Source: Balanoglossus misakiensis
Lineage: Eukaryota; Animalia; Hemichordata
Assembly (NCBI GenBank): GCA_040954595.2
Contig: CM082590.2
Coordinates: 3,224,001-3,288,000 of the forward strand
Length of the DNA stretch: 64,000 bases
Direction: 5' to 3'
Part shown: positions 1 through 59,182 of the stretch, piece after piece
Position numbering within the stretch: the first letter of the stretch is position 1
Layout: every line of letters begins with the position of its first letter
Position numbers and translations under genes: made by a program
Notes under the pieces: model-generated
Seen by the model: only the letters and a program-made list of their open reading frames with translations
Database searches by the model: none
What the model was told of the DNA's origin: nothing

Positions 1-1154
1 AAATTTCCATGGTTGCTTCCAAACAGCCTCGTTTATTTACCGATTTCTGTTGTGAGGCGCAGAACACATGATAGGCCTATGCGCATGAGACATTTTTCCA
101 CTAGACTCTGTAGATCGACGGATAGTTGTAAAATTTCATGGTTGCTTCCAAATACAGCCTCGTTTATTTAGCGATTTCTGTTGTGATGCGCATAACACAT
201 AGATAGGCCTATGCGCATAGGAACGTTTTCCACTAGACTTTGTAGATCGACGGATAGTTGTACAATGTCCATGGTTGCTTCCAAACAGCCTCGTTTATTT
301 ACCGAATTCTGTTGTGAGGCGCAGAACACGTAATAGGTCTATGCGCATAAGGAAGTTTTCCACCAGACTCTGTAGATCGACGGATAGTTGTAAAATTTCA
401 TGGTTGCTTCCAAATACAGCCTCGTTTATTTACCGATTTCTGTTGTGATGCGCATAACACATAGATAGGCCTATGCGCATAAGAACGTTTTCCACTAGAC
501 TCTGTAGATCGACGGATAGTTGTACAATTTCCATGGTTGCTTCCAAACAGCCTCGTTTATTTACCGATTTCTGTTGTGAGGCACAGAACACATGATAGGC
601 CTATGCGCATAAGACATTTTTCCACTAGACTCTGTAGATCGACGGATAGTTCTAAAATTTCCATGGTTGCTTCCAAACAGCCTCGTTTATTTACCGAATT
701 CTGTTGTGAGGCGCAGAGCACGTAATAGGCCTATGCGCATAAGAAAGTTTTCCACCAGACTCTGTAGATCGACGGATAGTTGTAAAATTTCCATGGTTGC
801 TTCCAAACAGCCTCGTTTATTTACCGATTTCTGTTGTGATGCGCAGAACACATAGATAGGCATATGTGCATAATAAAGTTTTCCACTAGACTCTGTAGAT
901 CGAGAGATAGTTCTAAAATTTCCATGGTTGCTTCCAAACACAGCCTCGTTTGTTTACAAAATTCTGTTGTGATGCGCAGAACACATATATAGGCCTATGC
1001 GCATAATAACGTTTTCCACTAGACTCTGTAGATCGACGGATAGTTGTAAAATTTCTATGGTTTCTTCCAAACAGCCTCGTTTATTTACCGAATTCTGTTG
1101 TGAGGCGCAGAACACATAGATAGGCATATGTGCATAAGAAAGTTTTCCACTATA
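1..1154. repeat. ~131-bp satellite DNA, left segment of the array
   Basis: Tandem monomers AAATTTCCATGGTTGCTTCCAAACAGCCTCG...TAGGCCTATGCGCATA...GACTCTGTAGATCGACGGATAG. This segment is nearly identical to 22539-23692 (offset 22538). Confidence 0.97.
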
Positions 1155-1188
1155 AACAGCACGAAAACAATTTCCCAATAACCGAAAA
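1155..1188 (+). repeat. Left terminal inverted repeat of the 21-kb transposon
   Basis: AACAGCACGAAAACAATTTCCCAATAACCGAAAA is the reverse complement of 22076-22109 with 2 mismatches. Confidence 0.93.
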
Positions 1189-1719
1189 CCAAAAATTTCA
1201 GGAAATTTCATTGAAATAAAGTTAAAATAGCAGTTAAATTATGAAGATGTATAGTTTTTACTTAGTAATCTTTTCTTTAGTTGCCTTTGCATATTCCATC
1301 GCCGATATTTTAAAGGAAAAATCTACTTTCATGTATTTATAAAGAAAACGAGTATGGTGAAAAAAAACACATTGATCATTGGTGCATAGACTGTCTATGA
1401 TTGGTGGGAACATTTTCACAAATTATTATTGAAAAACTTATTACTAACTTGTAGAAAATAAAAAATAAAAAAATTCATAGAAATAGTGATATCTATAGTC
1501 CACCATAGAAAAATTAACAATGAAAAAATCACGATGTGACATTCGAGGTTTTCAAACCAATAATTTTGTGTTTATTCTTACACATAAGGAGTTTTATACA
1601 GATAAGCCCATTATTCTTGCATAAAAAGCACTGATAAAAATTACAAAGTTGATTTACAGATATTTTCACAAAAAAATTATGTTTATGCTCATTAAAATTA
1701 AGATCTCATACAAGTTAAG

Positions 1720-2598
1720 AAAGTTCTTGCAAGGGACACACCCACCGATGTCAACACCCAACGATGTCAGAAATTTCTTGCAAGGGTCACACCCACAGAT
1801 GTCAGAAATTTCTTGCAAGGGACACACCCACCGATGTCAACACCCAACGATGTCAGAAATTTCTTGCAAGGGTCACACCCACCGATGTCAGAAATTTCTT
1901 GCAAGGGACACACCCACCGATGTCAGAAATTTCTTGCAAGGGACACACCCACCGATGTCAGAAATTTCTTGCAAGGGACACACCCACCGATGTCAGAAAT
2001 TTCTTGCAAGGGTCACACCCACCGATGTCAGAAATTTCTTGCAAGGGACACGCCCACCGATGTCAGAAATTTCTTGCAAGGGTCACGCCCACCGATGTCA
2101 ACACCTAACGATGTCAGAAATTTCTTGCAAGGGTCACACCCACCGATGTCAGAAATTTCTTGCAAGGGTCACGCCCACCGATGTCAGAAATTTCTTGCAA
2201 GGGTCACGCCCACCGATGTCAACACCCAACGATGTCAGAAATTTCTTGCAAGGGTCACACCCACCGATGTCAGAAATTTCTTGCAAGGGACACACCCACT
2301 GATGTCAACACCCAACGATGTCAGAAATTTCTTGCAAGGGTCACACCCACCGATGTCAGAAATTTCTTGCAAGGGACACACCCACCGATGTCAGAAATTT
2401 CTTGCAAGGGTCACACCCACAGATGTCAGAAATTTCTTGCAAGGGACACGCCCACCGATGTCAGAAATTTCTTGCAAGGGTCACGCCCACAGATGTCAGA
2501 AATTTCTTGCAAGGGACACACCCACCGATGTCAGAAATTTCTTGCAAGGGACACACCCACAGATGTCAGAAATTTCTTGCAAGGGACACACCCACAGA
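1720..2598 (+). repeat. Left subterminal 35-bp minisatellite (~23 units plus 16-bp partial units)
   Basis: Unit GATGTCAGAAATTTCTTGCAAGGG(A/T)CAC(A/G)CCCACC, with interspersed GATGTCAACACCCAAC short units. It explains the repetitive ORFs in all three + frames. Confidence 0.95.
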
Positions 2599-2826
2599 CA
2601 AAAATTGCAAAAATTATAAAAATGCACATTTTGCAACAATTTGAACAAAACCATGGTAACTCAGACCAACTTAAGAAATCAGCTTTTCACTTTCAGAAAT
2701 CAAGATTTGTTCAAAATATGTGGAAAAAGACAGAGAAAATGCATAAAAACAGAAAATTCATAATATTAGCTCAAACATACAGGACTGTATTAGGTGTACT
2801 GTATGAGCATCTTATGAAAACCCTTA

Positions 2827-5800
2827 TCAATCAAACTCCAGATCTTCTGCATCTGTTAGTCCAAGAAGAGATTGACATCTCACTTTGCAGTGAGAGATAC
2901 ATCTTTCATTGGTGTCTATTCCCACCACGTTGACATCATTTGTCAGCCCAGCAATTACAGCAGTGCCTGAAAAAATGCAATATATTTGTAAATGTTAATA
3001 CAGTCATTGCAAAAAATTGGGTCTTTGCATCACAGTATATATAATACAAAACAATGTCTCTACCTGTCACCTCTTTTCCATCAGTTGATATAATTTTACG
3101 TATATTACTGGAAAGAATACCAGCAGTACTATGGGTTCATTGACAGAAAAATAGTGTGCTAGCCTTATGGGATGACTGCATGTAAACTTTCAAAACAGAG
3201 AGAGACAATAATGATTATTGGCCTAACAGCCCTTCCACTCCACTCATGTTACGCAAAACGAGCACCAAAGGTAAACTTGCACAACCAGTCAAAATTTTTA
3301 CATCTGCAGGTTACTTTATTTTTCAAAAATGACTATGAGTGTTTTCCCCAGCAATCCCTGATAAATTATTGACTTATTTGCATAACGATGCAATTCATTG
3401 TTGTGTAAAATAAACATTGTTTTTTATGTTTTCCACAAATGAAAGGGGGTATTGGCCAACACTCATTAATATGAGAGAACACTGTGATGTCCATTCATCA
3501 GTAACCCCGTTTTGACTACAGTTGGCTAGATTGTGAGTGATGTAAATGTTCTGTATCTCACCTGCACCACATATACCATCCAGCATCCATGATCCTGGCG
3601 ATGCAAAGTCTTTAATGAGATACTCAAACAGGTTAAGCGGCTTTTGCCTTGAGCAAATTACAGCACCCTCCCCATCCTTCTCCAGAACATCCTGCTTCAC
3701 ACTCCAAAAATTATGCCTGCCAGCACAGGAGACTTGATCTTCTGTTATCTGTGCAGAAGTTGATGCATACGCAACAACCAATCCCTTGACGGAACGTGTC
3801 AAGGTCACCTTTGTCTCTGAAAGAAATATGAAAGACAAAATCAAATAATATTGCTGCTTATAATATTTTAATATGGACTTAATATAGTTAAATGGTAGGT
3901 GCAAGTGATAAGAGTGGTCTGATGTCAAAGGTCATAATTTTATATAAATATACCAGCTAGGTACTAAATATGTATACAAACCTCTTTTTGTGTTTTCCAC
4001 ATAGTAGAATCCATCTTCAACTCTCTTGAAACAGTGTGTGGCTTTCAGTTCTTGCTTGATTTTCACCAGGCTGTCAACTTCACAAAGCAGAATGACCCTG
4101 TAACTGCTGGTATTCGTATTTAGATTTTTCATGACAACTACAAATTCCCTAATATCATCCATTGACCAGTCCTGAAACACAATGTAAAATATTTGTAAAA
4201 AATGTTACTGCCAATCTCAGAAGGTGTAATTGGGTGAGATTATGGAATTAAATGACACCCTGTAATAAATCATTGCCCTGAAATCATTGCACTGGAAGGA
4301 ATTTATATAGCTATACGCCCCGTAGATGACTCTGATCACACTGTCTTTTTTAAACTCTATATCAAATGATAAAACAATACTATAGTTCGCAACCCCTTTG
4401 TTTGTAATCACCCCCTATAAATAATGGTGCAGTCCTACAAGGAGTGTAATATGAGACTCAACATGATCTCACCAATTACTTCAGATTTATGAGATTTACC
4501 AGTGAATATCCCAATATGTCTGCACGGAAAAACGTAGCTAATGTCTTCATTCTCACTTAACACTTAATTTTAAATCTGAGAAATGTTTGGTCTAAAAAAT
4601 ATGCTTTTTCCAATGCCTTAGCAATATTATAACCTTGCAATAAAAAATGAAATAACTCACACTGGGAACATCAACAACAGCCAGGTCGAAGCCATCACAG
4701 TTCACCCCATTTTCCTTGAGAATAGTCTGGTTCAACTTCAGTACATCTGCCTGAAAGATTATTCCTCGGTTCCCTCCATTACCAGGGTAAACGTCTGCTG
4801 GTCTGGCATTAAGGCCCTCAGCTTTCTCCCTCTGTACTCTTCGACAATACTGCACAAAGGTCTCTGGTATGGTCAGTCCATTGAATTTTAGGTTTGTAAA
4901 TCTTAGAAGTCGTTCCCGTGTTGTTTCATGAGGATATGTCTTTACTGCCTCTTCCCAATCGCACACTCCTGTCTCGTGAATGAACGCACGTTGAACACGT
5001 CTGAGTTTCGAAAGGACAGCGCTTTCCTGAGTGAACTGTTCAAGGGATAAATTGTGGTCTATAGCATCTTGAAGAAGGGACTGGATTGTCTTGACATCCA
5101 AAACTTTGAAATGCTTGAACTTGTAAGGTTTGAAGTCCGGTCTTGAAATCCTGTCTGATGATTTCAGCTTCTGGTCTTTGAGACCTCCATCTTCAAACAT
5201 CTCCAGGAACTGCCTGATTAATGAATATGTTGGATCATCATACGAAGCCAACATGCATGCTATGTCAACTGTCTGGTTGACTTTTTCCTACAGAAGACAA
5301 AAATATGACATGCCAATTATTTTGCAAAGCCAGCAAACTGGACTTTTCGGGGAAGCATTAATATTAATCAACCAGTTACTGTGAAAATAATTTCATGTAA
5401 CTTAACTATGGTGTATTACAATAATGTAAGTCTGAAGTGCAGTGAGAAATATAGAAGACAGGCAAGTACTAAAAATTACTATTATTTGGAACTTAACAGT
5501 GTCTCACAAACTTTGATTTATTTATGCATGTAATGTTGTATTTTATTTAAATATCAAACAGGGGGAGATGAAAAAAATATGTTGGGAAAATAAGTTCTGC
5601 CATATCTTAATACCGACATTCTTTAAAAGACACCACATTGAATTTCCACATTGACGAAAACAACTTACCTCATTGAGAATAATTCTACATGAATTCTTAA
5701 ACTCACTGGGCTGTATATCCTCCGGCATTTCACTCCGACTTGCTCGGCAGATTGCAACCTACCAAACAAACAAACCACTTGGTTTAGCATCTGTGAGAAA

Positions 5801-8800
5801 CCCTGAATACATTGGTTTATGGGCCCTGAATGCAGAATGTCATTTGCCCTATGCTGGAGGGCAAATGGCTTTTATTTAACAAGTTAATAGCCTTTACTTG
5901 ATGCATATTTCATATTAACAAAAAGAATCTTATTTCACATTTATAGCAAACAGATGAAGCTGTTTCTGTGATTGTTCCCTTTTAAGATGATTTTGCAATT
6001 TGCACTGATTTACACAACCTATTTATATGGTTACAAATACATGTATACTAATTAGTTCTCATTGAATGACCTGATAGAATATTAAAATACTAATATGGTC
6101 AACACCAGCTACATTCAAAAGTTTATTGGAATGAAATTACCTTGTCTCTGAATGTCATTGCATGACGGAATTCACCAGTTTTGTTGTGGCGAACACCTAA
6201 CCACTTCTTATCTTCATCTTGAAGTCCCACATACACTACACAGTTTAAAGTCTTGAATCGGTGATCACTTTGATGACGCTTTGCAAGTTCTCTTGTGGCA
6301 AGTAGGGTGTGTTGGCCACCAATGACATCATAGGCATAACCATTGACCTGAAAAGAAATACACTGCACTATTCAGTATTGGCAACACCAATGTGCAATCC
6401 CGCGCAGAACCAGACACCATTTTTAATAGTTTATGGACTGAAGCAGGGCTTGGGTAGAGACTATCTGATGCCAGGAACACACAGACATGTACACAGAAGT
6501 AATTGTTACTCTACTCTACTCCAATTCAAATCTGAAACATTCTGCTGTTAATTGTTGATAGGAACCCGGCTTTTGAAAGAAACCTTTCATCTTTTGCTGT
6601 ATTTATTGTGTACAGCATTAAACGTGAGAAAAATATAATGTAAAGTTGTGAACGACAGGTGACAGCCCATACAACACACCAAAACAAGGAAAACTTGGGT
6701 GAGCTGGAGGGTTGTCAACATCAAGAACATGTGCAGCAGAATTCAGCAAACTTAACTATCAGCCACGGTGAGAACACATGAATCAACGAAAAACATGACA
6801 TTAGATAAGTAAAATATTATTACACCATTCCAAAATGATAACTGGTCTCTCATGTGATATTTGATAACAGCCATACTCAGTATCTGTCTTTGCTACATAA
6901 GACGGGAATGTGACAATTTAAATATGCTTGCCTTTGTTCCATCAAACTGGGAGGTGTCTAGTAAATCCCTCACAGACAAACACAATGGCTGGTATGCTTC
7001 ATCTCTGTAATCCTCCATAGACTTGATTAGCTGCTTAAGAAATTGATCATCACTTTCACGGATTTGCTGGTCCCCTCCTTCTAATGCTCTTACACTTATG
7101 GTAAAATGTCCTGAAAGTGAACAGCAGTGTAAATAATTACATACATAACTCTCTCTCTCTCTAGAAATGTCAATATTTGATGCATATATTTCAAATATCA
7201 TCTGTCATAAGAATTACATAAGGTTATCAACTTGTTTGCTTTGCTATTCAAAATTGTTGAGATCCATGAAATTGTGAAAATTGACAGTAGTGACACAAAG
7301 AAATGTTTAATGGACATGAACTGCCAACAGGATTCACAGAAACAGTCCTTGGACCGTCTCCCATATATCCATGTAAGAACTAACAACCTTACCACAAAAT
7401 GCCTGATGTACACGGGTCTGAACATCACTTTTAAGTTCCTCTACATACTGCCTTTTCAACGTAACAGCACTAACTGAATCAGTCGCTTGGGTCAATTTCC
7501 GCTTCTTAGGACGTACCCTATAGGGAAGAAAAATGAGGATTTTTTTTAAATTGATTTTTTCACTGATTTCATGGTTGTGTTCATAACATTGAAAGCAGAA
7601 CCATTTGTAAATGAATTTTAAATGACACAAAATGACAATATCTACTTTTTTACGCACCCACATAAAAACAAGAGAAGACATAATAAATTTAGTACAAAAG
7701 CTATCAAAGTAATGGAGATTCTAAAGGAAATGAACCTCAGTACAATATAGAACAGGCTTGGGAAACAGTCATTACATGGTTCAAACACAGCCTTCAAAGC
7801 AAAAATAGTGATTCCCAGAAATTATAAAATTTGCAAAGTAAGGTCACTATAAGGTATAGAAATGTCAATATTGATGGATATATTACAAATTAAATCAGCC
7901 ATGCACTTCCTATTTGTCGTTAAACATACAAAGTTGATCCTGTGTTTATGTCCTCTCACAGTGGCACAATGCATAAAAAAAAACTTACATTCTACCCGAA
8001 GCTGGACGGCCACTACTGGGGCGTGCATGTGGGCTGTCAAGTGAACTAGTAGATCTGCCACTACAGTTTGGAGAACTTGTGTTGAAAATGATTTCACCAT
8101 CATGATCTTCTTGATCCTCCTCGTCATCGGTACCCCCTATAGACATTGGACTATCATTAAATTGAGCTCGCCAGTCAGTAAAGACAGCTACCATTTCTCC
8201 TGGGGTGCTTGCCTCCTTGAACTTTCTGCTGAACGTGGACCGATTCCATTCAAAGTATTTCCTCTCCAACACAAAAACAAAATTCTGTCCAGATGACTGC
8301 AGAAATTCAAACTGTAATGTAAAAGTATTTTAGAAGAAATTAAAACGGTAATAATGCACGCGGTTATCAACATCACACCGGCTGCACGTAGCTCGACGGT
8401 TTATGCGCTTGTGAAGTTGTAGCAGATGACAACTGTTTACATAGACGCAGGCTGAAGTGTCGACTCGCGGCACGGTGCCAATTTGGACCGATGATAACAG
8501 GAGCGATCATCCGCACTTCAGACCATCCAACCCACAGCACAGGCCGCACCATGGTTGAGAGCGCTAGCTCTCAACTACGGTGCGACATGTAGGTCGTACG
8601 GGAAGCGTTAAAATTAGATTCACCGTGAAACACTTGTCGTCACTACATAGGCAGAATTGCTTGTACGTTTGTCTAAAAAAATAAACAGCGGTTATTTGAC
8701 AACGCGATCATAATGTATATGTTGTTGTTTGGTCAGTGCGGGCACTGCATGTGCATAGACTTAGCCGTGCGTACAGGTCTGTATGTTCCCGGCGTTACAC

Positions 8801-9126
8801 CATGTAACACCGGGAACATACATACCTGTACGCACGGCTAGCATAGACTGTACATCATGTACTGCAATGTTATGGCAGCAATTTCACGAATTAATCATCA
8901 TACACAGCGCACAAGGTGCTCCTTGGTTTAAAACTGCTGACAGTGACAGCGACCAAAGTCTTACCTTTAACGCGTCCGGCTTGTCTTTAAAAACAGACAT
9001 CGAAATAACCTCTTCAAACTCCACCCCAGTCTTCTTGTTTCGCATCCTAAATTTCTTGCCATTTTCGATAGAATACAAGTACGCTGCGTTGCTGGACTCT
9101 TCCAACCACCACTTCTTTCGCCCCAT
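2827..9126 (-). CDS. ParB/Srx-like domain fused to a beta-class N6A/N4C DNA methyltransferase-like domain; 10 exons, ~760 aa
   Basis: Phase-consistent exons 9126-8965, 8296-7989, 7517-7393, 7110-6932 (GC donor), 6347-6141, 5758-5669, 5287-4661, 4171-3982, 3816-3562, 2966-2827, with no internal stops. ParB-like motif: IRESDDQFLKQLIKSM...QPLCL...YDVIGGQHTLLA. MTase motifs: FDLAVVDVPS (motif IV position), then QKPLNLFEYLIKDFASPGSWMLDGICGAGTAVIAG...VVGIDTN (motifs X-I-II). Confidence 0.8.
8762..8840. mobile_element. 79-bp hairpin MITE with 9-bp TSD in intron 1 of the ParB-MTase gene
   Basis: Near-perfect palindrome TAGCCGTGCGTACAGG...CCTGTACGCACGGCTA (38-bp arms, 2 mismatches). Flanked by GCATAGACT at 8753-8761 and 8841-8849. 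Confidence 0.8.
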
Positions 9127-9179
9127 GTCGAATATGCAGACTGTGGCACACTAACTTGTGTTCGCAGTAAACATGGTAT

Positions 9180-12100
9180 ATATACACTTGGGAAACCCAT
9201 GATTCGACGAAACCCTAAAGTTGGTGTCAGACACGCTTGATTCGGTGGGCCGTTGACGGCCGTCTTGTCGCGTGGTGTTGGTCAAGCTACACCTGGCGAG
9301 TTTCCTGCATTTTTCTCGTCAACAATGCACATGCACGATGTCCCACCAGAAAAGTGCGAATCGTCCTGCTAATCGCCCTGCTGTTGAACTTCCTGTCATG
9401 TCACTGGTTAAAGTTCATGACGTTCGACCAACGCACGCGCGCACACAACAAAAGTTGATTTTAAGACAAAACTTTTGCTCCCAAACAGAGAAAAACATTA
9501 TTAACATTTAATTGCCGTACAAGAGAAACATATTCTGACTAACAGTAGCCTAGACTTGCTCCAAGTCTATGGGCTTCATTATGTGTAGGGAACGCGACGC
9601 TACCCGAAACCACAAGCTCAGTCGCAAATTCGAAACTCACCTCACTATTAAAAACACGCTCAAGGCAAGCATTCACGCAAAAAGTATTGCATTTATTTAT
9701 TAAGACAAAAAAAACACCGAAAATATTGAGTATTGATATTTAAAAATTACCAAGCGACTAGTGGGCTAGTCTAACAGTAGCCCTACGTACAGGTCTGTGC
9801 GTTCGCGGCGTTTCCAGGCCGTGTAACGCCACGAACACACAGGCTTACCCCTGCATGTACGTACGTAGGGCTAACTTCACAGAAGCTGTAATGTGATGGG
9901 CACGTCATTTATTAACGGAGCAGTTTTATTTCAAAAGAATACACGTCCCATTTTCGATACACAGATAAAGAATTATTCTGTAACTAACTCAGATTTACAA
10001 AATGGGGGGATTTAAATAGCCGAGGCTATTGACAGGCGCCTGTCACGGCACTCCAATTCAAAAACCATACAAACTCGTGTTCGGTGTATAGGCCTATCTA
10101 CACTTGGAAAACCTTTGACTCACAAGTTGGTGTACTCATACAAGCTTGTTTAGGGGATATTTGACTGCTGTCTTGTCGCGTAGTTTGGTCAAGCTACACC
10201 TGGCGAGTTTCCTGCATTTTTCTCGTCAACAATGCACATGCACGATGTCCCACCAGAAAAGTGCGAATCGTCCTGCTAATCGCCCTGCTGTTGAACTTCC
10301 TGTCATGTCACTGGTTAAAGTTCATGACGTTCGACCAACGCACGCGCGCACACAACAAAAGTTGATTTTAAGACAAAACTTTTGCTCCCAAACAGAGAAA
10401 AACATTATTAACATTTAATTGCCGTACAAGAGAAACATATTCTGACTAACAGTAGCCTAGACTTGCTCCAAGTCTATGGGCTTCATTATGTGTAGGGAAC
10501 GCGACGCTACCCGAAACCACAAGCTCAGTCGCAAATTCGAAACTCACCTCACTATTAAAAACACGCTCAAGGCAAGCATTCACGCAAAAAGTATTGCATT
10601 TATTTATTAAGACAAAAAAACCACCGAAAATATTGAGTATTGATATTTAAAAATTACCAAGCGACTAGTGGGCTAGTCTAACAGTAGCCCTACGTACAGG
10701 TCTGTGCGTTCGCGGCGTTTCCAGGCCGTGTAACGCCACGAACACACAGGCTTACCCCTGCATGTACGTACGTAGGGCTAACTTCACAGAAGCTGTAATG
10801 TGATGGGCACGTCATTTATTAACGGAGCAGTTTTATTTCAAAAGAATACACGTCCCATTTTCGATACACAGATAAAGAATTATTCTGTAACTAACTCAGA
10901 TTTACAAAATGGGGGGATTTAAATAGCCGAGGCTATTGACAGGCGCCTGTCACGGCACTCCAATTCAAAAACCATACAAACTCGTGTTCGGTGTATAGGC
11001 CTATCTACACTTGGAAAACCTTTGACTCACAAGTTGGTGTACTCATACAAGCTTGTTTGGGGATATTTGACTGCTGTCTTGTCGCGTAGTTTGGTCAAGC
11101 TACACCTGGCGAGTTTCCTGCATTTTTCTCGTCAACAATGCACATGCACGATGTCCCACCAGAAAAGTGCGAATCGTCCTGCTAATCGCCCTGCTGTTGA
11201 ACTTCCTGTCATGTCACTGGTTAAAGTTCATGACGTTCGACCAACGCACGCGCGCACACAACAAAAGTTGATTTTAAGACAAAACTTTTGCTCCCAAACA
11301 GAGAAAAACATTATTAACATTTAATTGCCGTACAAGAGAAACATATTCTGACTAACAGTAGCCTAGACTTGCTCCAAGTCTATGGGCTTCATTATGTGTA
11401 GGGAACGCGACGCTACCCGAAACCACAAGCTCAGTCGCAAATTCGAAACTCACCTCACTATTAAAAACACGCTCAAGGCAAGCATTCACGCAAAAAGTAT
11501 TGCATTTATTTATTAAGACAAAAAAAACACCGAAAATATTGAGTATTGATATTTAAAAATTACCAAGCGACTAGTGGGCTAGTCTAACAGTAGCCCTACG
11601 TACAGGTCTGTGCGTTCGCGGCGTTTCCAGGCCGTGTAACGCCACGAACACACAGGCTTACCCCTGCATGTACGTACGTAGGGCTAACTTCACAGAAGCT
11701 GTAATGTGATGGGCACGTCATTTATTAACGGAGCAGTTTTATTTCAAAAGAATACACGTCCCATTTTCGATACACAGATAAAGAATTATTCTGTAACTAA
11801 CTCAGATTTACAAAATGGGGGGATTTAAATAGCCGAGGCTATTGACAGGCGCCTGTCACGGCACTCCAATTCAAAAACCATACAAACTCGTGTTCGGTGT
11901 ATAGGCCTATCTACACTTGGAAAACCTTTGACTCACAAGTTGGTGTACTCATACAAGCTTGTTTGGGGATATTTGACTGCTGTCTTGTCGCGTAGTTTGG
12001 TCAAGCTACACCTGGCGAGTTTCCTGCATTTTTCTCGTCAACAATGCACATGCACGATGTCCCACCAGAAAAGTGCGAATCGTCCTGCTAATCGCCCTGC

Positions 12101-14270
12101 TGTTGAACTTCCTGTCATGTCACTGGTTAAAGTTCATGACGTTCGACCAACGCACGCACGCACACAACAAAAGTTGATTTTAAGACAAAACTTTTGCTCC
12201 CAAACAGAGAAAAACATTATTAACATTTAATTGCCGTACAAGAGAAACATATTCTGACTAACAGTAGCCTAGACTTGCTCCAAGTCTATGGGCTTCATTA
12301 TGTGTAGGGAACGCGACGCTACCCGAAACCACAAGCTCAGTCGCAAATTCGAAACTCACCTCACTATTAAAAACACGCTCAAGGCAAGCATTCACGCAAA
12401 AAGTATTGCATTTATTTATTAAGACAAAAAAACACCGAAAATATTGAGTATTGATATTTAAAAATTACCAAGCGACTAGTGGGCTAGTCTAACAGTAGCC
12501 CTACGTACAGGTCTGTGCGTTCGCGGCGTTTCCAGGCCGTGTAACGCCACGAACACACAGGCTTACCCCTGCATGTACGTACGTAGGGCTAACTTCACAG
12601 AAGCTGTAATGTGATGGGCACGTCATTTATTAACGGAGCAGTTTTATTTCAAAAGAATACACGTCCCATTTTCGATACACAGATAAAGAATTATTCTGTA
12701 ACTAACTCAGATTTACAAAATGGGGGGATTTAAATAGCCGAGGCTATTGACAGGCGCCTGTCACGGCACTCCAATTCAAAAACCATACAAACTCGTGTTC
12801 GGTGTATAGGCCTATCTACACTTGGAAAACCTTTGACTCACAAGTTGGTGTACTCATACAAGCTTGTTTGGGGATATTTGACTGCTGTCTTGTCGCGTAG
12901 TTTGGTCAAGCTACACCTGGCGAGTTTCCTGCATTTTTCTCGTCAACAATGCACATGCACGATGTCCCACCAGAAAAGTGCGAATCGTCCTGCTAATCGC
13001 CCTGCTGTTGAACTTCCTGTCATGTCACTGGTTAAAGTTCATGACGTTCGACCAACGCACGCGCGCACACAACAAAAGTTGATTTTAAGACAAAACTTTT
13101 GCTCCCAAACAGAGAAAAACATTATTAACATTTAATTGCCGTACAAGAGAAACATATTCTGACTAACAGTAGCCTAGACTTGCTCCAAGTCTATGGGCTT
13201 CATTATGTGTAGGGAACGCGACGCTACCCGAAACCACAAGCTCAGTCGCAAATTCGAAACTCACCTCACTATTAAAAACACGCTCAAGGCAAGCATTCAC
13301 GCAAAAAGTATTGCATTTATTTATTAAGACAAAAAAAAACACCGAAAATATTGAGTATTGATATTTAAAAATCACCAAGCGACTAGTGGGCTAGTCTAAC
13401 AGTAGCCCTACGTACAGGTCTGTGCGTTCGCGGCGTTTCCAGGCCGTGTAACGCCACGAACACACAGGCTTACCCCTGCATGTACGTACGTAGGGCTAAC
13501 TTCACAGAAGCTGTAATGTGATGGGCACGTCATTTATTAACGGAGCAGTTTTATTTCAAAAGAATACACGTCCCATTTTCGATACACAGATAAAGAATTA
13601 TTCTGTAACTAACTCAGATTTACAAAATGGGGGGATTTAAATAGCCGAGGCTATTGACAGGCGCCTGTCACGGCACTCCAATTCAAAAACCATACAAACT
13701 CGTGTTCGGTGTATAGGCCTATCTACACTTGGAAAACCTTTGACTCACAAGTTGGTGTACTCATACAAGCTTGTTTGGGGATATTTGACGGCCGTCTTGT
13801 CGCGTAGTTTGGTCAAGCTACACCTGGCGAGTTTCCTGCATTTTTCTCGTCAACAATGCACATGCACGATGTCCCACCAGAAAAGTGCGAATCGTCCTGC
13901 TAATCGCCCTGCTGTTGAACTTCCTGTCATCTCACTGGTTAAAATTCATGACGTTCGACCAACGCACGCTCGCACACAACAAAAGTTGATTTTAAGACAA
14001 AACTTTTGCTCCCAAACAGAGAAAAACATTATTAACATTTAATTGCAGTACAAGAGAAACATATTTTGACTTCACAGAAGCTGTAATCCGGGGCTGTAAT
14101 ATGATGAGCACGTCACTTTTAAACAGGGGTAGTCGCACGCAGTGTGTGAGTTTAAACAGTTTCTCCCACCTGTCCTAAGTTCAGTTTGATGTCAAAAGAA
14201 TACACGCGGTACGTTCAATTTTCGATACACAGATAAAGACTGGTTTTGTAACTAACTTAGATTTACGTAA
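9180..14270. repeat. ~906-bp tandem repeat (about 5.5 units) between the two divergent genes
   Basis: Equivalent positions at 11022, 11928, 12833 and 13740 give periods of 906, 905 and 907. Internal units are near-identical; the first and last partial units are diverged. Confidence 0.96.
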
Positions 14271-14684
14271 ATAGATCTCTTAATGTACGCATATTACATG
14301 AAATACACTTCAATCGTAGTTATTATAGTGTTCATTTAATTGAAAAATAGGTATTACTTTAATAGTGACATTTCATTGACCTCTTGACGCTCTTTCGTTC
14401 GAAGGACAAGCGAAACAAATTGGTATAGATTTCCACTTTATTGGGACAAAAGTGATTACATGTACTTTGGTTCGATGGCTTTTGACTTTCGCGGACTGCG
14501 TAACGGCTTGCTCGGCAGCTGCAATTCCAGTGGCGGGGGTCGGTCCCGGACTACAACTGACCCAAGGGACTGACATCCGCTACTGTAGTTACTGGTAGCG
14601 ACAGACCCCCTCGCAAACCGCGACAGACATTCGCGCCGCGCGCTGGTCACGTGAATCACGTAGGCCTAATTAACGACGCGACAC

Positions 14685-17600
14685 ATGACCGGACCTGCAG
14701 ACGCGGCTGACCAGCCCGAACGTGACACCTCAAATACTCATGGTCGCTCTGGAGTCTATTATGACATGGCAAGCCTAGAAATATTGTTTGATTCGTCCGC
14801 TTCATCGGAAGAAATACTGTTTGATTCGTCCTCGTCCTCAGAAGATTTTTATGATAATGCAACGAACCCGAACGAAGAGATTGTAATATATGACATCTCA
14901 TGCACCGATGATGATTCTGACTCAATGTGCTATAGTTCACAAACTGCCGCCATCGACTCGGTTGAATGTGCATACCCACTAACTAAACGTGTAACGTCCA
15001 CACCTAAGAAGAGACGCATCAGTGAGCCGGTAAGGGACCCGTTTGATGTATTACGTCAACCCTGCTGTGAAGATTGGTGCCTTAGAAACCTGACTATAAA
15101 CGAAATGCTTGAGTGTGATCGACATATGAAAAACCTAGAGAACGAGTCCAGACAGAAACAGTTCATATTAAGATGCTTTCGAGAGAATTCTTACAAGAGG
15201 TTCATAAAATCAAAACCTGTGGCGGAAACAAATATGAGAATAGCCGGAAGAGCAGTGTGTCGACAGGCTTGGCAACTGGCATACAACGTGTCTGATTATC
15301 GTTTTGCAGAATGTGAAAAGTTATTTCTGCAAGACATTGTGACTGTTCGTCACGGCAATTCCGGCAAAAGTCACATGACGGACAAAACTACAGAAGCGAT
15401 TGCCTGGATGCGTTTCTATTTCGAAAGAATGGGCGACTACATGCCCAATGATGCAAACAGGGTGATCCTTCCCTGTTCGTGGACCAAACTCATGGTTTAC
15501 CAACGAATGAAAGACGAGTTCAGTTCACGAGGGGCCGGTCCCAGAGACATGATCTGTTACGATTATTTCTGCAGAGTATGGAAGATTCACCTTCGGGAAT
15601 TCGTCATCGGAAAGGTAAGACTTTACAGTGACACTGTGCCAAATTCTTCCCTGTATTTAAATCTGTATGATCGCACCGATGTGTTTACACAAGATTTCCC
15701 ACTGATCACCCTCCGCCACTCCTAGAAACAATGGTATCATCCAAGCGTGACGTAAAATACTGACTAGTACGCCATTTTGTCCTTTGTTTTGTCGGAGATT
15801 TGTGGTGAATGTACCGCTTGTCTGTGTTCCTGTCATGCCGGTGGCATACAAAATGTTTCCGTTGTCCCCAATGTCCGTCTCTTTGCACCGTATAGTTTCA
15901 ATGATTAACGCATGCAACTGACGAGTATTACCACATCAATAATAGTTTTGCTTCTTTGCCGAAGGTAAGACATGAAGGGGTCCGAATATCTGAGCTCTGC
16001 GTGGCAGGGCTGTGTTGTTACAGTGTGGGTGGAGGCTCGCCGTAACAACACAGCCCTGCCACACAGAGCTACGAATATCTCTGCGTACAGATCTGTGTGT
16101 TCCCGGCGTTAAGTACGGTGGAGGCCGTGTAACGTCGGGACCGCACAGACCTGTACGCAGAGCTAGGGTCCGAAGTGACTATGGCCGGTAGCAGGCTCGA
16201 GGCTCTTCCGGGCGCATTGCTAAGGTTTACACGACTTTGGAGGCTACGACGGGTGACTGACGAAGTGTATGTATCTGATCACTAATCATGTTTTTTTTTT
16301 TTATAGGGCAGCGAGTTTGTGTGCTGTGAAACATGTGTTCGGCTGGATGAACAATTTGCAAAAGCAAGAGCTGAGTTTGAAAGAAGTCGAGTCAAAGGTC
16401 TAGTTGCACTTCACTTGAAACAAGTAGAGTAAGTAAACAAGAAATTTATTAAACTGTCAACAATAACAATGCAGTTTACACATATCAACATTTAATGTTT
16501 CAACTTGCTTTTAGGAGAAGAACAAAAATTTGCATTTGCCGCATAAATCAAAATGGTGACAGATCACCACAAATGGCTGATATCGTGCTTTGATTTGTAA
16601 AGTACTTCACCTTGAATTGCAGTTTTGTTAGTACCCATGATAATCTTTTTTTAAAAACCCATAGTCACATTTTTGCACCACACCCACATAAGCACAGTCA
16701 ATACATGAGTGTGTGTGTGTGTGTGTGTGACCTCATTTGTTTTGCAGAAATAGATGTGAAATTGATAACTTGTAAAGAAGTATGTCCACATCTCAATAAA
16801 TTAGTAATCGATTCTCAAATTTTTTTTTTCTTTTAAAGGAATGAACGCAAGCGTTATCACTACCACCGTGAAAAAGCAGAAAGGGAACCAGATGAAATTA
16901 TGGCTATCATTCAAGATGGCATGGATCAAAGCAAAACAGATATACCCCACCTGATCAAAGAAGACAAGGCAACATCAAATTTGTGGAGATTGCGGACACA
17001 TGTTACAGGTACTAGTGAGAGATACTTTGCTTCATTGCTCTTTTTGCATTTAAACTATCGGTACACTTCCATCTAGTCATTTGTTAAGAACAAATTTGTT
17101 CATCATCAGTCCCATCAACATAATATCACATTTTAACTAAAGTGTTTTATAAATATTCTTTAATGTTTAGCTTCCATTTTGTGTATGTGTGTTGAAGTTA
17201 TGTGAATTTTAATCTGAAGGAAGTTCTGCCAATATTTCACAAACCACACATTTTACCACCACTATACTATAATATAATTTTCTTTTAACAGGCAATATAC
17301 TGCATACTGGAGTGTCATCTGGGAAAATACCATATGTTTATATAGACATGAACCAGTTTCCACACGACAGCAACTTGACCATGAATATCCTACTAGAAGT
17401 ATTGGTAGAATCCAAAGATCATCTAGCCAAAACATTGTATTTGCAACTTGACAATTGTTTCCGGGAGAACAAGAACCGATTCTTGTTGAGTCTCATGGCC
17501 TTGCTGATACAACTGGATACATTTGAAGAAGTAAGTGCTTCATTGTTTAACCTATGGTAAATTCTAGGCACATTAATTATAAAATCCAAAATGAATACCA

Positions 17601-20086
17601 TTCATGAAGAACAATTCTTCATTGTTAGTTTGTAAAAAATGAGGTTGGCATATGCTCAAAGCAGTGATTTCATAGTTTAACAATATACGTATTATTGTAA
17701 TCATTACAGATTTATGTGAATTTTCTGCCTGTGGGACATACGCATGAAAATGTTGATCAGATGTTTTCGAAGATCTCAGTGGGATTAAAAAGATCAAATG
17801 CCTACACAGTTGAAGGTAAGTTGATAAGAACAATAGAGAACAGAGACAATTTCAATTGATGTCAGATCCAAGAAACTGAACAGGAACACAAATAGTGTGC
17901 ATAATATTCAACAGAAAATGTGCTGCCGGGAAAAAATAGATCAGCTGAAAAGTAAATAACTTTAGCAGTTTTTCAGTAATTGAAACATTGGTAAGCATAT
18001 TCTGATTAACGGTCTACATTCTTAGACTGATAACCAGCCAGCCGGCCGGCCAGATAAAAGTGTATGCACTATGTTTCATTTTACAACATCATGTTAAATA
18101 CTCATTTGCTGATTATACCTATTTTCTCAGATTTAATCTCAATCATTGAAAGCAGCTACACACCAGCCATCAACGTAGCAATATCAACAAAACTGCTGAA
18201 TATCAAGGAATGGCTTATTCCTCACATGCACAAAAATTTTAAAGGCCATTCCCGTCCGCACAACTTCCGCTTTAGGAAAGTGGATGATAAAGCCTATATG
18301 CAGTACAGAGAATGGTGTACAGATCCATGGCAGCCGATGCCAAAGGATGGTGTTGAGATTCCTGGTCTTCTGTGTTTGATGGTAAGTAGTAATTACTTTT
18401 GATGACATGTTCACACTATAAGAATTAAGGGTGTACAAGTGGTAAAACAAATTATTGTCCCTTTTTCAAATTGTTAATTTTTGGATTCTCCTTTGTAATT
18501 ATCTAAATGTGTAGTAAAATGTTTGGGTATCTGTGCTCATTTTTGAGATACAAGGCCATGAACTTTTCCATCATGAGGGAAAATGCTGACACGGCATTTT
18601 AAATTCTGAGAACAAAATAATTTAATGCAGTTTATCTCAAAATTAAGCTTGGCGACAATATAGTTTTATTTCATCACACACGGGTTACCTTCGTACAATA
18701 GAAAATTAGAGGATTGTGATATTTCTGGGATTATGATTTATCTACTGAATTGTGTAATTCATATCTGTACCCATGTTGTGTCTGCATTTCTTCTCTGTAT
18801 ATTTTCATGAAACAAATAATCAACCAACTAATGCATTTATATACTTTGATTCATTTAGACTATCCCAAACATTGATAAACCACCTGAATGGGTTGTACCA
18901 AGCCTAATGAAACTAGACGTGGATGGCTTATTAAAGAGCATTCCAGCTGGTTTCGCCCACAGAATGACCAGTCAAGCTGTCCAAACCTGGAAAACCTTCA
19001 TGGAAAAAATAACAGACTTGGAGAAGGTTGGTCTACATATAATTCCATTCATATCCTTTTTTCAATGTGTTTTGACTACACTTACATGAAGCAAGGGAGA
19101 CAAGGAATGTACTGGGCGTTTTAGCGTACCAGAAGTAGTAAAACCAAAATTTGCTTTTGATTCATAGATTCGCAAGAGCATATGGTGTGGGCTAATGAGC
19201 ATAAGCGCCTTTGAGTATGACACTTGTTGTAGATATTGGCGCTATACAAATTTCTCTGATTGATTGATTGAATAGAAAATAACCCAACCCAACCCAACCA
19301 AACTGTTAAAATTACATTCAACTCCATCCTTGCCAACATTCCCTTTTATAATTGAAGTTATAACATGTATTAAAATATGTCTTTCAGGTTCCTAACAGTG
19401 TACCCACGCGATGGCAGATCCATATACTAAAAGAAGCAGCACTTAGAAAACAACATGCACGAAATGAAAATACTACAGATATGCCAGAGGAACTGAGGCA
19501 TATCCAAGAGAAACTAACAGCTCCATGTCCTCCAGTAAGTGTTTTATTGGTCTGTAACAGAATAAGTATAATTTAAATACAGTTACAAAATGTGCTATTG
19601 TATTGTGCAGAATGGGTTGTGCAAAGTTTCTACTCCATACTGATTCACTCAGTATTGCAGTATTATTTGTAACATCTGCAATGACCTTCTGTCTTCTATC
19701 TTTTTGATGAATAGGTGACAATTGGTAATCAAAACAAAGACCAGGAAGCCCCAGCAGTGCAAGAAATGAACAGTTTTGATACTGTTGACCAGGGAATGCT
19801 GATTGCAGTCTGGGCACCAGACAATGATGCCAGGCCACAAATAGCACAGGTTATAGAGAGAAATGACAGTGAGCTCAACATCCACTGGTTAGTTGGCAAG
19901 TACAATGGTATGTGGAAGGAGGCATATCATGGCTTTGCAACCAACAGAAGGCCATGGGTGGACACCATTCCTGTTGAGTCGTGTATTCTTTGGGATTTCA
20001 CCCTTACAAAGAAAGGATGCCTGAAAAAAGCAACAGCTGATGAACTGAAGAAAAAGTACTCAGAACTTGATGAAGCTGCTGGGTGA
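14685..20086 (+). CDS. Sola-like (Sola1-related, DUF7869-type) DDD transposase; 9 exons, ~834 aa (807 aa from ATG 14766)
   Basis: Phase-consistent exons 14685-15614, 16307-16428, 16839-17008, 17292-17530, 17710-17815, 18131-18381, 18859-19026, 19388-19534, 19715-20086. Motifs: HGN, DYMP...LP, FVCCETC, IIQDGMDQSKT, LYLQLDNCFRENKN, FLPVGHTHENVDQMFS. NLS-like TPKKRR. Lies between the TIRs. Confidence 0.85.
15987..16165. mobile_element. Two nested hairpin MITEs with 9-bp TSDs in transposase intron 1
   Basis: The outer element is flanked by GGGTCCGAA (15978-15986 and 16166-16174). The inner hairpin 15992-16071 is flanked by CGAATATCT (15983-15991 and 16072-16080). The outer element resembles the 8762-8840 hairpin. 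Confidence 0.75.
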
Positions 20087-21273
20087 GTGTTTTTAGTGTA
20101 ACCAGTGATTTTATGTTTTTCACATTAGTTGAAAACACCTGGTTTTAAATCACTGATAAAGTGTGCAACAAATAATTTGTGAATAACCGAATAGATAAAA
20201 TTGTATTTTGAACATTATTTCACTCAACGACTGTAGTACTTGTGTGTATATTTTCACTCAGAACTGTAATTTGACTGTAATTTTTTAAGCATTACAAATC
20301 TGTACAGTTAATTTTCGCAACAAGCTTTCAGTGTATTTCGAATGGCACTTCAGACAGATTTCTCTCTGCGAAATTTCCCGTATTTTGTATACGGATGCCA
20401 TGTGTTACATGGTCACTACATTTTTTAAGAACAGGTGTAATGGTAACCAAATTTAAATTGTGTAATAATTTGTACATATAAGTTGGGGACAATTTCTGTT
20501 TATTGTTAAGAAATTCTCTAAAAAGGCTGAATGAGTTGCCTGTCTGATAGTTCTCAAAGTTGGTATAAATAATCTTGAGGATGTCTTTATTTCAATTTCA
20601 AAGCATTATATTGTCATATTTGGTATGGGTTTATAGTGTAATGCAATTGAAAAAAAATAGCCATGATTTCATTGACTAAGAACAAATTCACAAGTGCAAA
20701 ATATATTTCATTTACCTTATACAGAATTTTTCAGGAGTGGCCTAAAGATGAGTTTTATCCTTCATTTTCAATGAGGAAAATCTTAAAAGATTTTCATGTA
20801 TATTTTTCACTTACTGATCTTATGTGTGTATTTAAAGGCATACCTCAGTCACCTCCAATATATATGTATATGCCCATATATGTCAGAAATGGCATATTTA
20901 ACCGTTATAAAGAACAGATGGTGGCTAGATCTCAATTTGCCATGGTATCTATAGTTTATTTTTCATAGGTGACCGTATATCTTTTAAGTTTTCAAGGTTC
21001 AGATAAAGTATTTCAACCCATCTTGAAAATGTGAATGACACATAGTGTGTTATTGACATTTATTTACACACTGTTTGCATTTGAATAAATGCCATAAAAA
21101 CATTACATGTTTGTGTCAGTTCTGTTTATTACCTTATTATCAAAAATCTGATAGAAGACTGTACTTTATAAACATCCTTAGCAGTTTGTGAACATAGAGT
21201 GAACCTATAACAAGGAAAACTGATATGCCTTGATTTTTTTTCAGATGGGACATGTCTAAAATATTTCCTGCAA

Positions 21274-21766
21274 TGCAAGGGACGTACCCACCCATGCACA
21301 CGCCCACCCATGCAAGAAATTTCTTGCAAGGGACACGCCCACCCATGCAAGAAATTTCTTGCAAGGGACACACCCACCCATGCAAGAAATTTCTTGCAAG
21401 GGACAAGCCCGCCCATGCAAGAAATTTCTTGCAAGGGACACGCCCACCCATGCAAGAAATTTCTTGCAAGGGACACACTCACCCATACAAGAAATTTCTT
21501 GCAAGGGACACGCCCACCCATGCAAGAAATTTCTTGCAAGGGACACGCCCACCCATGCAAGAAATTTCTTGCAAGGGACACACCCACCCATGCGAGAAAT
21601 TTCTTGCAAGGGACACGCCCACCCATGCAAGAAATTTCTTGCAAGGGACACGCCCACCCATGCACACGCCCACCCATGCAAGAAATTTCTTGCAAGGGAC
21701 ACACCCACCCATGCAAGAAATTTCTTGCAAGGGACACGCCCACCCATGCAAGAAATTTCTTGCAAC
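21274..21766 (+). repeat. Right subterminal 35-bp minisatellite (~13 units)
   Basis: Unit CATGCAAGAAATTTCTTGCAAGGGACAC(A/G)CCCACC contains the perfect 18-bp palindrome TGCAAGAAATTTCTTGCA. It is homologous to the left array and in the same orientation. Confidence 0.95.
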
Positions 21767-22075
21767 TGACAAGCCGACACATGTTGGAACTCAACATATT
21801 TCGAAAAAGAATTTAGTAACGACCAATTAATGAAATTTCACTTGTAAAGTAATAAAATGACTTTTGCTTCTTCATTTTCACATAGTTACCATGGAAAATT
21901 ATATGACTTAATATGTTATATTTTAAATTTAGTTATTTCCATAAGAATATCTTTAACTTTCCAGTATGTTCAACCACTTTTGACTAAATCAGAAATTCAC
22001 AGTGAAATTATCAAGTACAACATAACTGAATTTAATAACCTGATATTTCTGTAGAAATTTTTGAAAAAAGTGTGT

Positions 22076-22109
22076 TTTTCGGTAATTGGAAAATTGTTTT
22101 CGTGCTGTT
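22076..22109 (-). repeat. Right terminal inverted repeat of the 21-kb transposon
   Basis: TTTTCGGTAATTGGAAAATTGTTTTCGTGCTGTT, followed by TATA and resumption of the satellite. Confidence 0.93.
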
Positions 22110-58800: not shown

Positions 58801-59142
58801 CACCCACATAGGATTATAACTAGAGTTTCCTGTTCATCTAAATAATACTGGCATAGTGATTGTCCATACAATGCACACTACAGTTGGTATAGTTTAACAA
58901 TAATTGTCAAGAATATACCATATTTAGTTCACACTCACCCACTTTAGATATAAAGCTGAGCCAACAAACTTTGAAGTAGAGGATATCAATCCACTGCAAG
59001 ACTTCAATGCACAGACTTGCCTAATAGATTTTTTGCCAAGGGCCAGAAGCTGGTTCAAAAAAAACAGACATGTTGTAGAGTCACCAAGGAGGCTTTCCCC
59101 ATCTTCTTCTGTGACAACTCTCTGCAGACCCGGTGATGGTGT

Positions 59143-59182
<40 letters not shown>

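Follow-up and report, generated by a model that had tools for sequence, protein, structure and literature searches.

A giant Sola1-like transposon of the hemichordate Balanoglossus misakiensis pairs its transposase with a ParB-methyltransferase fusion protein whose methyltransferase half is likely inactive

Giant Sola1 transposons carrying a second gene have been described in the brown alga Ectocarpus. The element Sola1-1_Ec32, published in 2025, measures 21,549 bp, has AACCG ends and a 4-bp duplication biased to end in A, and carries, on the strand opposite the transposase, a gene whose product combines ParB-like and N4C/N6A methyltransferase domains (PMC12477816). The accessible part of that paper devotes one paragraph to the ParB-methyltransferase gene, on the brown alga and with no test. 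As this element and those of the red alga Bostrychia have been published, the element presented here is the animal counterpart of a described design. It is an insert of 20,955 bp at positions 1155-22109 of a 64,000-nucleotide stretch of Balanoglossus misakiensis (assembly GCA_040954595.2, contig CM082590.2, positions 3,224,001 to 3,288,000), hereafter the window. The insert interrupts a 133-bp satellite, is intact and contains two divergent spliced genes, one encoding a Sola1-like transposase and the other an accessory protein with a ParB/sulfiredoxin (Srx) region and a beta-class methyltransferase fold. Judged from the sequences, there is about an even chance that the accessory protein is a non-catalytic, end-binding helper, with its ParB half on palindrome arrays aiding end pairing and its methyltransferase half a dead fold. 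An earlier, sequence-only reading of the locus had proposed a candidate new transposon system, a proposal tied to the gene pair not having been catalogued before; since the pair was already described for Sola1-1_Ec32, in the accessible text of PMC12477816, this part of the claim falls. What is new is an animal branch with a likely dead methyltransferase, the candidate binding sites, and the recurrence of the system in sponge-like and coral-like DNA.

The boundaries of the element are defined by several lines of evidence, and the two-gene transposon with terminal inverted repeats and a target-site duplication, as first proposed, is borne out by the ends, the TATA duplication and empty satellite units. 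Comparison of 1155-1188 with the reverse complement of 22076-22109 gives identities of 19/19, 32/34 and 38/44 bases. When the flanks are joined over one TATA, they correspond to all 11 of the 11 empty TATA-type satellite units, with 122-124 of 124 bases matching in each. When inverted ends accompanied by a 4-bp duplication were sought without bias, the element ends were the only pair obtained, and six of six mismatched flank pairs gave no hits. TATA is palindromic, so the duplication length cannot be fixed from the window alone; it is taken as 4 bp because two related elements carry the non-palindromic duplications TTAT and CTAA. With 20,955 bp, AACAG ends and a TATA duplication, the element has the features by which Sola1-1_Ec32-type elements are recognised (more than 10 kb, AAC ends, 4-bp duplication). 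The AWWT target preference of Sola1 is not seen in the three elements, which have TATA, TTAT and CTAA.

The sequence-only reading had left two features unmentioned: arrays of an 18-bp near-palindrome close to each end, and tandem copies of a 906-bp unit separating the two start codons. The 35-bp tandem arrays begin 563 bp from the left end of the element and 326 bp from its right end, and both lie past the 3' ends of both genes, close to the termini. The palindrome core word of the window has no copies in the element interior, promoter region included, or outside the element. Palindromes of 7-4-7 geometry are found 315-837 bp inside both ends in all three fully bounded elements; the word of the window differs from that of the sponge-like elements, while the geometry is the same. 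The units of the 906-bp array mark a recent expansion, and each also contains a copy of a sequence related to hairpin repeats of the introns. The CpG observed/expected ratio is 0.96-1.27 around the shared promoter, as opposed to 0.19-0.51 in most gene-body windows, which are depleted. The undepleted region (Table 1) is likely an unmethylated two-way promoter region. Invertebrate genes commonly combine an unmethylated promoter with a methylated gene body, and the CpG pattern would match that of resident, expressed invertebrate genes.

The accessory protein consists of an N-terminal beta domain, an acidic linker, the ParB/Srx domain with a helical region, and the beta-class methyltransferase fold. 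Folding was done on the Saccoglossus homolog P0154, which is 37% identical to the window protein (predicted local distance difference test score, pLDDT, 86.5), and the structural matches refer to this model rather than to the window protein. Residues 531-763 match CcrM with a Z of 23.4 (root-mean-square deviation, rmsd, 3.0 over 218 residues), and the model shows the permuted order of the beta class, with the catalytic motif ahead of the motif binding S-adenosylmethionine. A profile of 45 sequences likewise matches beta-class DNA methyltransferases of the M1.HpyAVI/DpnA type (E 4.5e-9). Residues 192-459 match the ParB/Srx proteins PadC (Z 11.0, rmsd 2.8, 96 residues) and sulfiredoxin (Z 9.1, rmsd 2.9, 85 residues) and, through the helical region, a Pnob8-like ParB (Z 9.9, rmsd 5.0, 209 residues), KorB (Z 9.3, rmsd 12.8) and Spo0J (Z 6.0); this helical region is where ParB proteins have their helix-turn-helix DNA-binding domain, and in the accessory protein it may correspond to one. 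Foldseek matches a Myxococcus ParB (E 1.3e-5) and PHROG a ParB-like family (E 3.3e-4); Pfam detected ParB in none of the proteins scanned, and the ParB assignment comes from structure and PHROGs. With both folds found on this model, the proposed ParB/Srx-methyltransferase fusion holds. The N-terminal domain has weak fold matches only (SANTA, PTB and FERM, Z 5.5-5.8), and a homodimer prediction for P0154 residues 185-520 scored 0.05. Among viral folds, the top match, with an alignment of 620 columns, is to a phage protein that carries the annotation ParB/Sulfiredoxin, and the models are in line with a phage origin of the accessory protein. One scan of IMG/VR yielded no relatives of the accessory protein, a metagenome search with the sponge protein alone yielded none either, and phage tblastn matched only the C-terminal 10-13% of the protein.

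Conservation differs between the two halves. The family alignment was built without P0162 (a bacterial member, 56 aa long, of one cluster), P0148 (repeat-rich) and P0176 (a transposase). Residues 241-280, in the ParB region, form the best-kept 40-aa block among long homologs, and G274 (72/75 rows), H276 (66/75), N318 (67/71) and R221 (52/55) are strongly conserved. In beta-class amino-methyltransferases, motif IV has the consensus (D/N/S)PP(Y/F/W), in which the aromatic residue stacks against the flipped base. In the alignment, the fourth position holds an aromatic residue in four of 86 rows, all of them Chara (DFPY/DLPY), and in none of the 82 non-Chara rows. The DVPS codon of the window lies inside exon 7, so that no extra exon can alter motif IV; among 54 unannotated homolog frames, Val directly follows motif IV in 29, compared with a background of 6%, a sign that the intron there is old. 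A loop of about 12 residues follows motif IV in Chara and is missing in animals. A Trp two residues past motif IV, present in 23/86 rows, aligns with the Phe before the next helix in Chara. Motif I (D-x3-G-x-G-T) is kept in 18/33 rows including the window, where one site is Ile in place of the usual Phe; it is degenerate in the sponge and anemone proteins identified by name and, by eye, in the loci L026, L031 and L032. These patterns suggest that the methyltransferase half is likely catalytically dead in animals, and the earlier idea that the protein marks DNA by methylation is weakened by the missing aromatic residue in the window and all non-Chara rows. The amoeba record Clastostelium P0080 has an animal-type short motif IV (DTP, then Trp), yet it stands in the tree with Chara on a long branch. 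The Chara record P0030 contains two ParB-methyltransferase units in tandem.

The accessory gene has a close hemichordate counterpart in Ptychodera flava XP_070534462.1 (P0001), which is collinear at 85% over 716 aa and spans eight of the nine accessory junctions, stopping just before the last. P0001 diverges from the window protein within motif I and ends early, while the Ptychodera records P0009 and P0159 have the full motif; P0001 appears to be either a broken copy or a model error. The GC-AG intron needed by the accessory gene is at the junction 6931-6932, across which the Ptychodera protein from the database also continues. A phmmer search with P0001 gave 376 clusters at E <= 0.001, of which 150 were listed. 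Among 21 clusters looked up, the homologs named come from hemichordates, a sea cucumber, two anemones, a sponge, a nemertean, amphioxus (ParB part only), Chara braunii (four records) and the amoeba Clastostelium, with three left without a name. The Branchiostoma homolog keeps the ParB part and has a different C-terminus, and several species carry many dispersed, often truncated accessory copies. A single-copy host gene was rejected, given nine Ptychodera records on contigs of eight sizes and four near-identical Halichondria loci, and this multi-copy occurrence supports the earlier reading, which a one-off host capture would have refuted. Bacterial contamination was rejected on the basis of 17 spliceosomal introns, common intron positions and animal homologs. 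Compared with run X1, the accessory gene shows 16 substitutions over 6,249 bp, of which two are exonic and both synonymous; the absence of amino-acid changes contrasts with 4.4 expected (p about 0.006), in a comparison that represents one study and whose contig may merge copies. The gene is under purifying selection, and its protein is maintained, though probably not as a methylase.

The Sola-like identity of the transposase, already suggested from its sequence, is supported by Pfam DUF7869 matches to three exons (E 2.2e-26, 4.7e-13 and 6e-11) and by the motif order. By eye, with the profile unscored, this order corresponds to the Sola1 profile as far as it is given in PMC5751038 (an Asp strand, D-N-C-x3-N-K-N, F-L-x-x-G-H), while the first motif, DGMDQ, differs. 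The acidic motifs contain D350, D434 and E473/D476, and D350 and D434 together with E473 or D476 are candidate catalytic residues. Saccoglossus LOC144350661 is collinear with the transposase at 68% over 603 aa, across all eight junctions. A conserved Cys-rich region is present at the N-terminus, and the NIPBL-like C-terminal domain (Table 1) also ends the sponge-like transposases. An Atlas cluster of DUF7869 proteins carries the automatic name 'Nipped-B-like protein A'. Literature searches found no paper mentioning DUF7869 and nothing on an NIPBL-like domain in these transposases. The idea that a Branchiostoma ParB protein shares the C-terminal domain of the transposase found no support on comparison. 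Both genes are intact as first described, with 10 and 9 exons and no internal stop. The earlier sizes of 760 and 834 aa can be obtained, the former with the alternative acceptor at 8296 and the latter with the in-frame ATG at 14685 as the start; the models adopted here differ, with 765 and 807 aa.

The linkage of the two genes, a point that the sequence-only reading had put forward for checking, recurs in DNA of other animals. A total of 32 loci were collected with the ParB exon alone, 30 of them metagenomic and two from genome bins holding eukaryotic DNA. A transposase is present at 6/32 loci, always upstream on the opposite strand, that is, head-to-head; these loci represent 4/16 families, and 3/6 of those in which 6.5 kb or more of upstream sequence is available. 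Bin G001 (8 Mb) has a single DUF7869 gene and a single accessory gene, about 4.5 kb apart, within an element of 13,750 bp with AACAC ends and a CTAA duplication. Locus L026 is an internally deleted 7.3-kb element with AACA ends and a TTAT duplication, set in a 39-bp tandem repeat. Both elements have palindrome arrays inside both ends. In Saccoglossus, the accessory and transposase proteins each lie on a contig of 576,650 bp, which suggests a pairing. A long inverted repeat in G002:C69, which gives apparent end pairs with palindromic duplications, was rejected as the ends of the element there. The records of L031/L039 (G001:C41) and L032 (G002:C69) are titled as bacterial bins and contain spliced animal-type genes, that is, eukaryotic host DNA. 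In the ParB tree, sponge-like and anthozoan-like clades are starred and the window groups with hemichordates, with the deeper forks open. Five of five inspected transposase introns of L031 agree with the window in place and phase by eye. The introns are old and their positions are common to sponge-like copies, which is in keeping with the proposed long residence in eukaryotes. Hemichordate-like, sponge-like and coral-like DNA alike show the accessory gene facing a transposase of a single clade.

Table 1. Features of the transposon and its surroundings in the window
Feature	Position	Strand	Remarks
Left target-site duplication, TATA	1151..1154	.	directly outside left end
Left terminal inverted repeat	1155..1188	+	begins AACAG; 32/34 bases match right end
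Left subterminal array, 35-bp unit	1718..2595	.	22 core copies of 18-bp near-palindrome (7-4-7)
Accessory gene, 765 aa	2827..9126	-	10 exons, no internal stop, one GC-AG intron
Accessory exons	9126-8965, 8311-7989, 7517-7393, 7110-6932 (GC donor), 6347-6141, 5758-5669, 5287-4661, 4171-3982, 3816-3562, 2966-2827	-	
Methyltransferase motif IV, DVPS (aa 568-571)	4661..4672	-	no aromatic residue; followed by conserved phase-0 intron
Exon with ParB/Srx motif GGQH (aa 273-276)	6141..6347	-	also holds conserved Asn318
CpG-undepleted region	8150..16150	.	observed/expected 0.96-1.27; spans both first exons and spacer
Tandem array, 906-bp unit	9283..14066	.	about 5.3 copies, units 99.3-99.9% identical; between divergent start codons
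Transposase gene, 807 aa, DUF7869/Sola1-like	14766..20086	+	9 exons, no internal stop
Transposase exons	14766-15614, 16307-16428, 16839-17008, 17292-17530, 17710-17815, 18131-18381, 18859-19026, 19388-19534, 19715-20086	+	
Last transposase exon	19715..20086	+	resembles C-terminal about 110 aa of human NIPBL construct (6wge_E 1528-1638, E 6.6e-12)
Right subterminal array, 35-bp unit	21298..21783	.	12 copies of left array's core, 11 a perfect 18-bp palindrome
Right terminal inverted repeat	22076..22109	-	pairs with left end
Right target-site duplication, TATA	22110..22113	.	directly outside right end
Host 133-bp satellite (insertion target)	1-1150 and 22114..42685	.	11 empty TATA-type units

In the preferred reading, the transposase would cut at the AACA ends and insert at AT-rich 4-bp targets, as the anatomy of the three elements suggests, by a cut-and-paste reaction through a putative D/D/E-or-D triad. 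Both genes would be read outward from one CpG-rich shared promoter region. The ParB-type half of the accessory protein, rather than the transposase, would bind the palindrome arrays; the protein would thereby help to pair ends 14-21 kb apart, with the methyltransferase fold serving as a non-catalytic scaffold. Inverted-repeat arrays beside ParB-type genes in red-algal Plavaka elements are interpreted likewise in the accessible text of their description (10.1101/2025.02.11.637652). Several points weigh against this reading, among them that the folds were obtained on a homolog. In many cut-and-paste systems it is the transposase that binds the subterminal repeats, and the arrays may therefore not be sites of the accessory protein. 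The arginine of the GxxR nucleotide motif of ParB follows GGxH in only 3/75 rows, and the window reads GGQHT, which makes a ParB-like clamp cycle doubtful. The window protein retains QKP, motif X and motif I, and as the latter two are kept, cofactor binding may persist. Three of the six long-flank families (L013, L018, L032) have no transposase; the upstream flanks of L013 and L032 are filled, by eye, with long terminal repeat (LTR) retrotransposon frames. In G002, none of the 23 DUF7869 matches is on the contig of the accessory gene, and three of them, when aligned, represent another motif type. Co-divergence of the two proteins over six pairs is mixed, with a Pearson coefficient of 0.82 (10/720 permutations) and a Spearman coefficient of 0.36 (75/720).

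Among the alternatives, a possible though doubtful one by analogy is that the accessory protein binds the repeats of its own element and acts on expression: like VANC, it would counter silencing or act as a self-regulator and so keep the shared promoter open. The targets of VANC form tandem repeats that differ between related elements, according to the accessible part of PMC5735166, and here too the palindrome word differs by lineage. The promoter region is CpG-undepleted with depleted gene bodies, and a methyltransferase fold without activity could serve to read DNA or to recruit factors of the host. However, the arrays are found near the termini, past the 3' end of each gene, with no copy of the core word in the promoter region, and an unmethylated promoter with a methylated gene body is ordinary for invertebrate genes. 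The same arrays might instead be bound by the transposase, whose Cys-rich N-terminal region and extra C-terminal domain could contact DNA or chromatin. The accessory gene would then be long-held cargo with a separate job, for instance in the host or in attaching excised copies to chromosomes. This is quite improbable: although no transposase is seen in the examined flank of some accessory genes, and in Branchiostoma the ParB part of the homolog is joined to a different C-terminus, the gene stays head-to-head with one transposase clade across hemichordate-like, sponge-like and coral-like DNA. Moreover, L032 retains a palindrome array beside an accessory gene with no detectable transposase, and the other DUF7869 transposases of G002 are without an accessory gene.

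Decidedly improbable is an active N4-cytosine or N6-adenine methyltransferase that the ParB half directs to its own element for marking, which is the proposal made for the algal elements. The beta-class fold and motif order, QKP and motif I in the window and 18/33 rows, purifying selection on the gene, and DFPY/DLPY in the Chara homologs would agree with activity, and the Trp after motif IV (23/86 rows) might substitute for the missing residue. Yet motif IV reads DVPS, with its codon within exon 7 and an aromatic residue in 0/82 non-Chara rows; the Trp, aligning with the Chara Phe, likely occupies a structural position; and sponge- and anemone-type copies have lost motif I and still keep the domain. 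The non-catalytic end-binding helper can also be extended to a broader scenario, which is unlikely as a whole. Animals would have carried a ParB/parS-like system on transposons from before the split between sponges and the rest, and in this system a phage-derived ParB loads on the end palindromes and bridges or spreads to move elements of 14-21 kb. Its methyltransferase would have decayed stepwise to a scaffold in animals and stayed active in algae, and the C-terminal domain of the transposase clade would also be that of the vertebrate cohesin loader NIPBL, for which the clade may have been the source.

Of the three fully bounded elements, two lie in tandem repeats, namely the window element in the 133-bp satellite, which has a higher-order structure, and L026 in the 39-bp repeat (6667-6742 and 14014-14174). 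An insertion preference for tandem DNA is possible on these two cases. Short hairpin and other repeats are nested in the window element at 8762-8840, 15993-16165 and about 2650-2790. Read depth in run X1 reaches tens of thousands in bins over 8762-8840 and 2650-2790, compared with about 96 elsewhere, which identifies these two as high-copy host repeats. Further along the window, two long overlapping frames of 546 and 875 aa at 52163-56291 (minus strand) resemble LTR retrotransposon gag-protease and pol by eye, and a long inverted repeat pair lies nearby at about 57019-57822. At 44588-45682 and 57700-59330, also on the minus strand, there are, by eye, a C-terminal fragment like that of a long interspersed nuclear element (LINE) and exons resembling another transposase.

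An animal copy with clean ends, selection on the accessory gene and defined candidate sites makes the role of the protein testable, via the protein with the 18-bp word and via a two-gene transposition assay. If the animal enzymes are indeed dead and yet have persisted over hundreds of millions of years, what has been conserved is probably DNA binding, not methylation. A helper that enables a transposase to move 20-kb cargo, if confirmed, would be useful as a tool. PF01555 matches in invertebrate genomes are no evidence for N4-methylcytosine (4mC) or N6-methyladenine (6mA).

The comparisons with known systems that follow rely on the accessible parts of the papers cited. VANC of the Arabidopsis VANDAL elements is comparable as a transposon-encoded accessory protein with lineage-specific tandem target motifs (PMC5735166). 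It is unrelated both as a protein and in its transposase, and the function shown for VANC is here the content of a rival reading only. The bdelloid N4CMT is another animal protein with the beta-class fold of PF01555 (Z 19.2 for structure 8s9n; PMC8885841); however, it is a host gene with an SPPY motif, a chromodomain and shown activity, has no ParB and is not on a transposon. A ParB-type region before an amino-methyltransferase is also found in the phage ParB-methyltransferases of ParB-terminase loci and in the ParB-HTH Dam family of chlorophytes and chytrids. The phage genes are not in elements with terminal inverted repeats, and the chlorophyte/chytrid family belongs to a different methyltransferase group (PMC4738411). 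ParB-methyltransferases of these kinds are the likely ultimate source.

Classical Sola1 elements have the three motifs in the same order by eye and a 4-bp duplication (PMC3845634, PMC5751038). They differ in being small, with AWWT targets, GGAC ends and a first motif other than DGMDQ, and no accessory gene is reported in the accessible text. Literature searches gave no animal report of a ParB-methyltransferase/transposase pair, with the limit that Repbase, Dfam and key papers (Bao 2009, Yuan and Wessler 2011, Iyer 2011) may list animal members. The Bostrychia Plavaka (EnSpm) elements with PAG2/PAG3 resemble the window element in being giant, in having a ParB-type gene beside inverted-repeat arrays, and in a PF01555 methylase gene (10.1101/2025.02.11.637652). 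They belong to another transposase superfamily, however, and their ParB is fused to a 2-oxoglutarate (2OG) oxygenase and their methylase to a SET domain, in separate genes. Closest is Sola1-1_Ec32, compared here by description only. The accessible text of PMC12477816 does not mention end arrays and predicts an active methylase, whereas the animal copies are without the motif-IV aromatic residue. The brown-algal protein has 1104 aa and the inverted repeats are imperfect and 282 bp long, as opposed to 765 aa and about 34 bp in the animal element. The two elements are alike in their giant Sola1 size (21,549 and 20,955 bp), their AACCG and AACAG ends, their 4-bp duplication and their opposite-strand gene, and both depart from AWWT targets.

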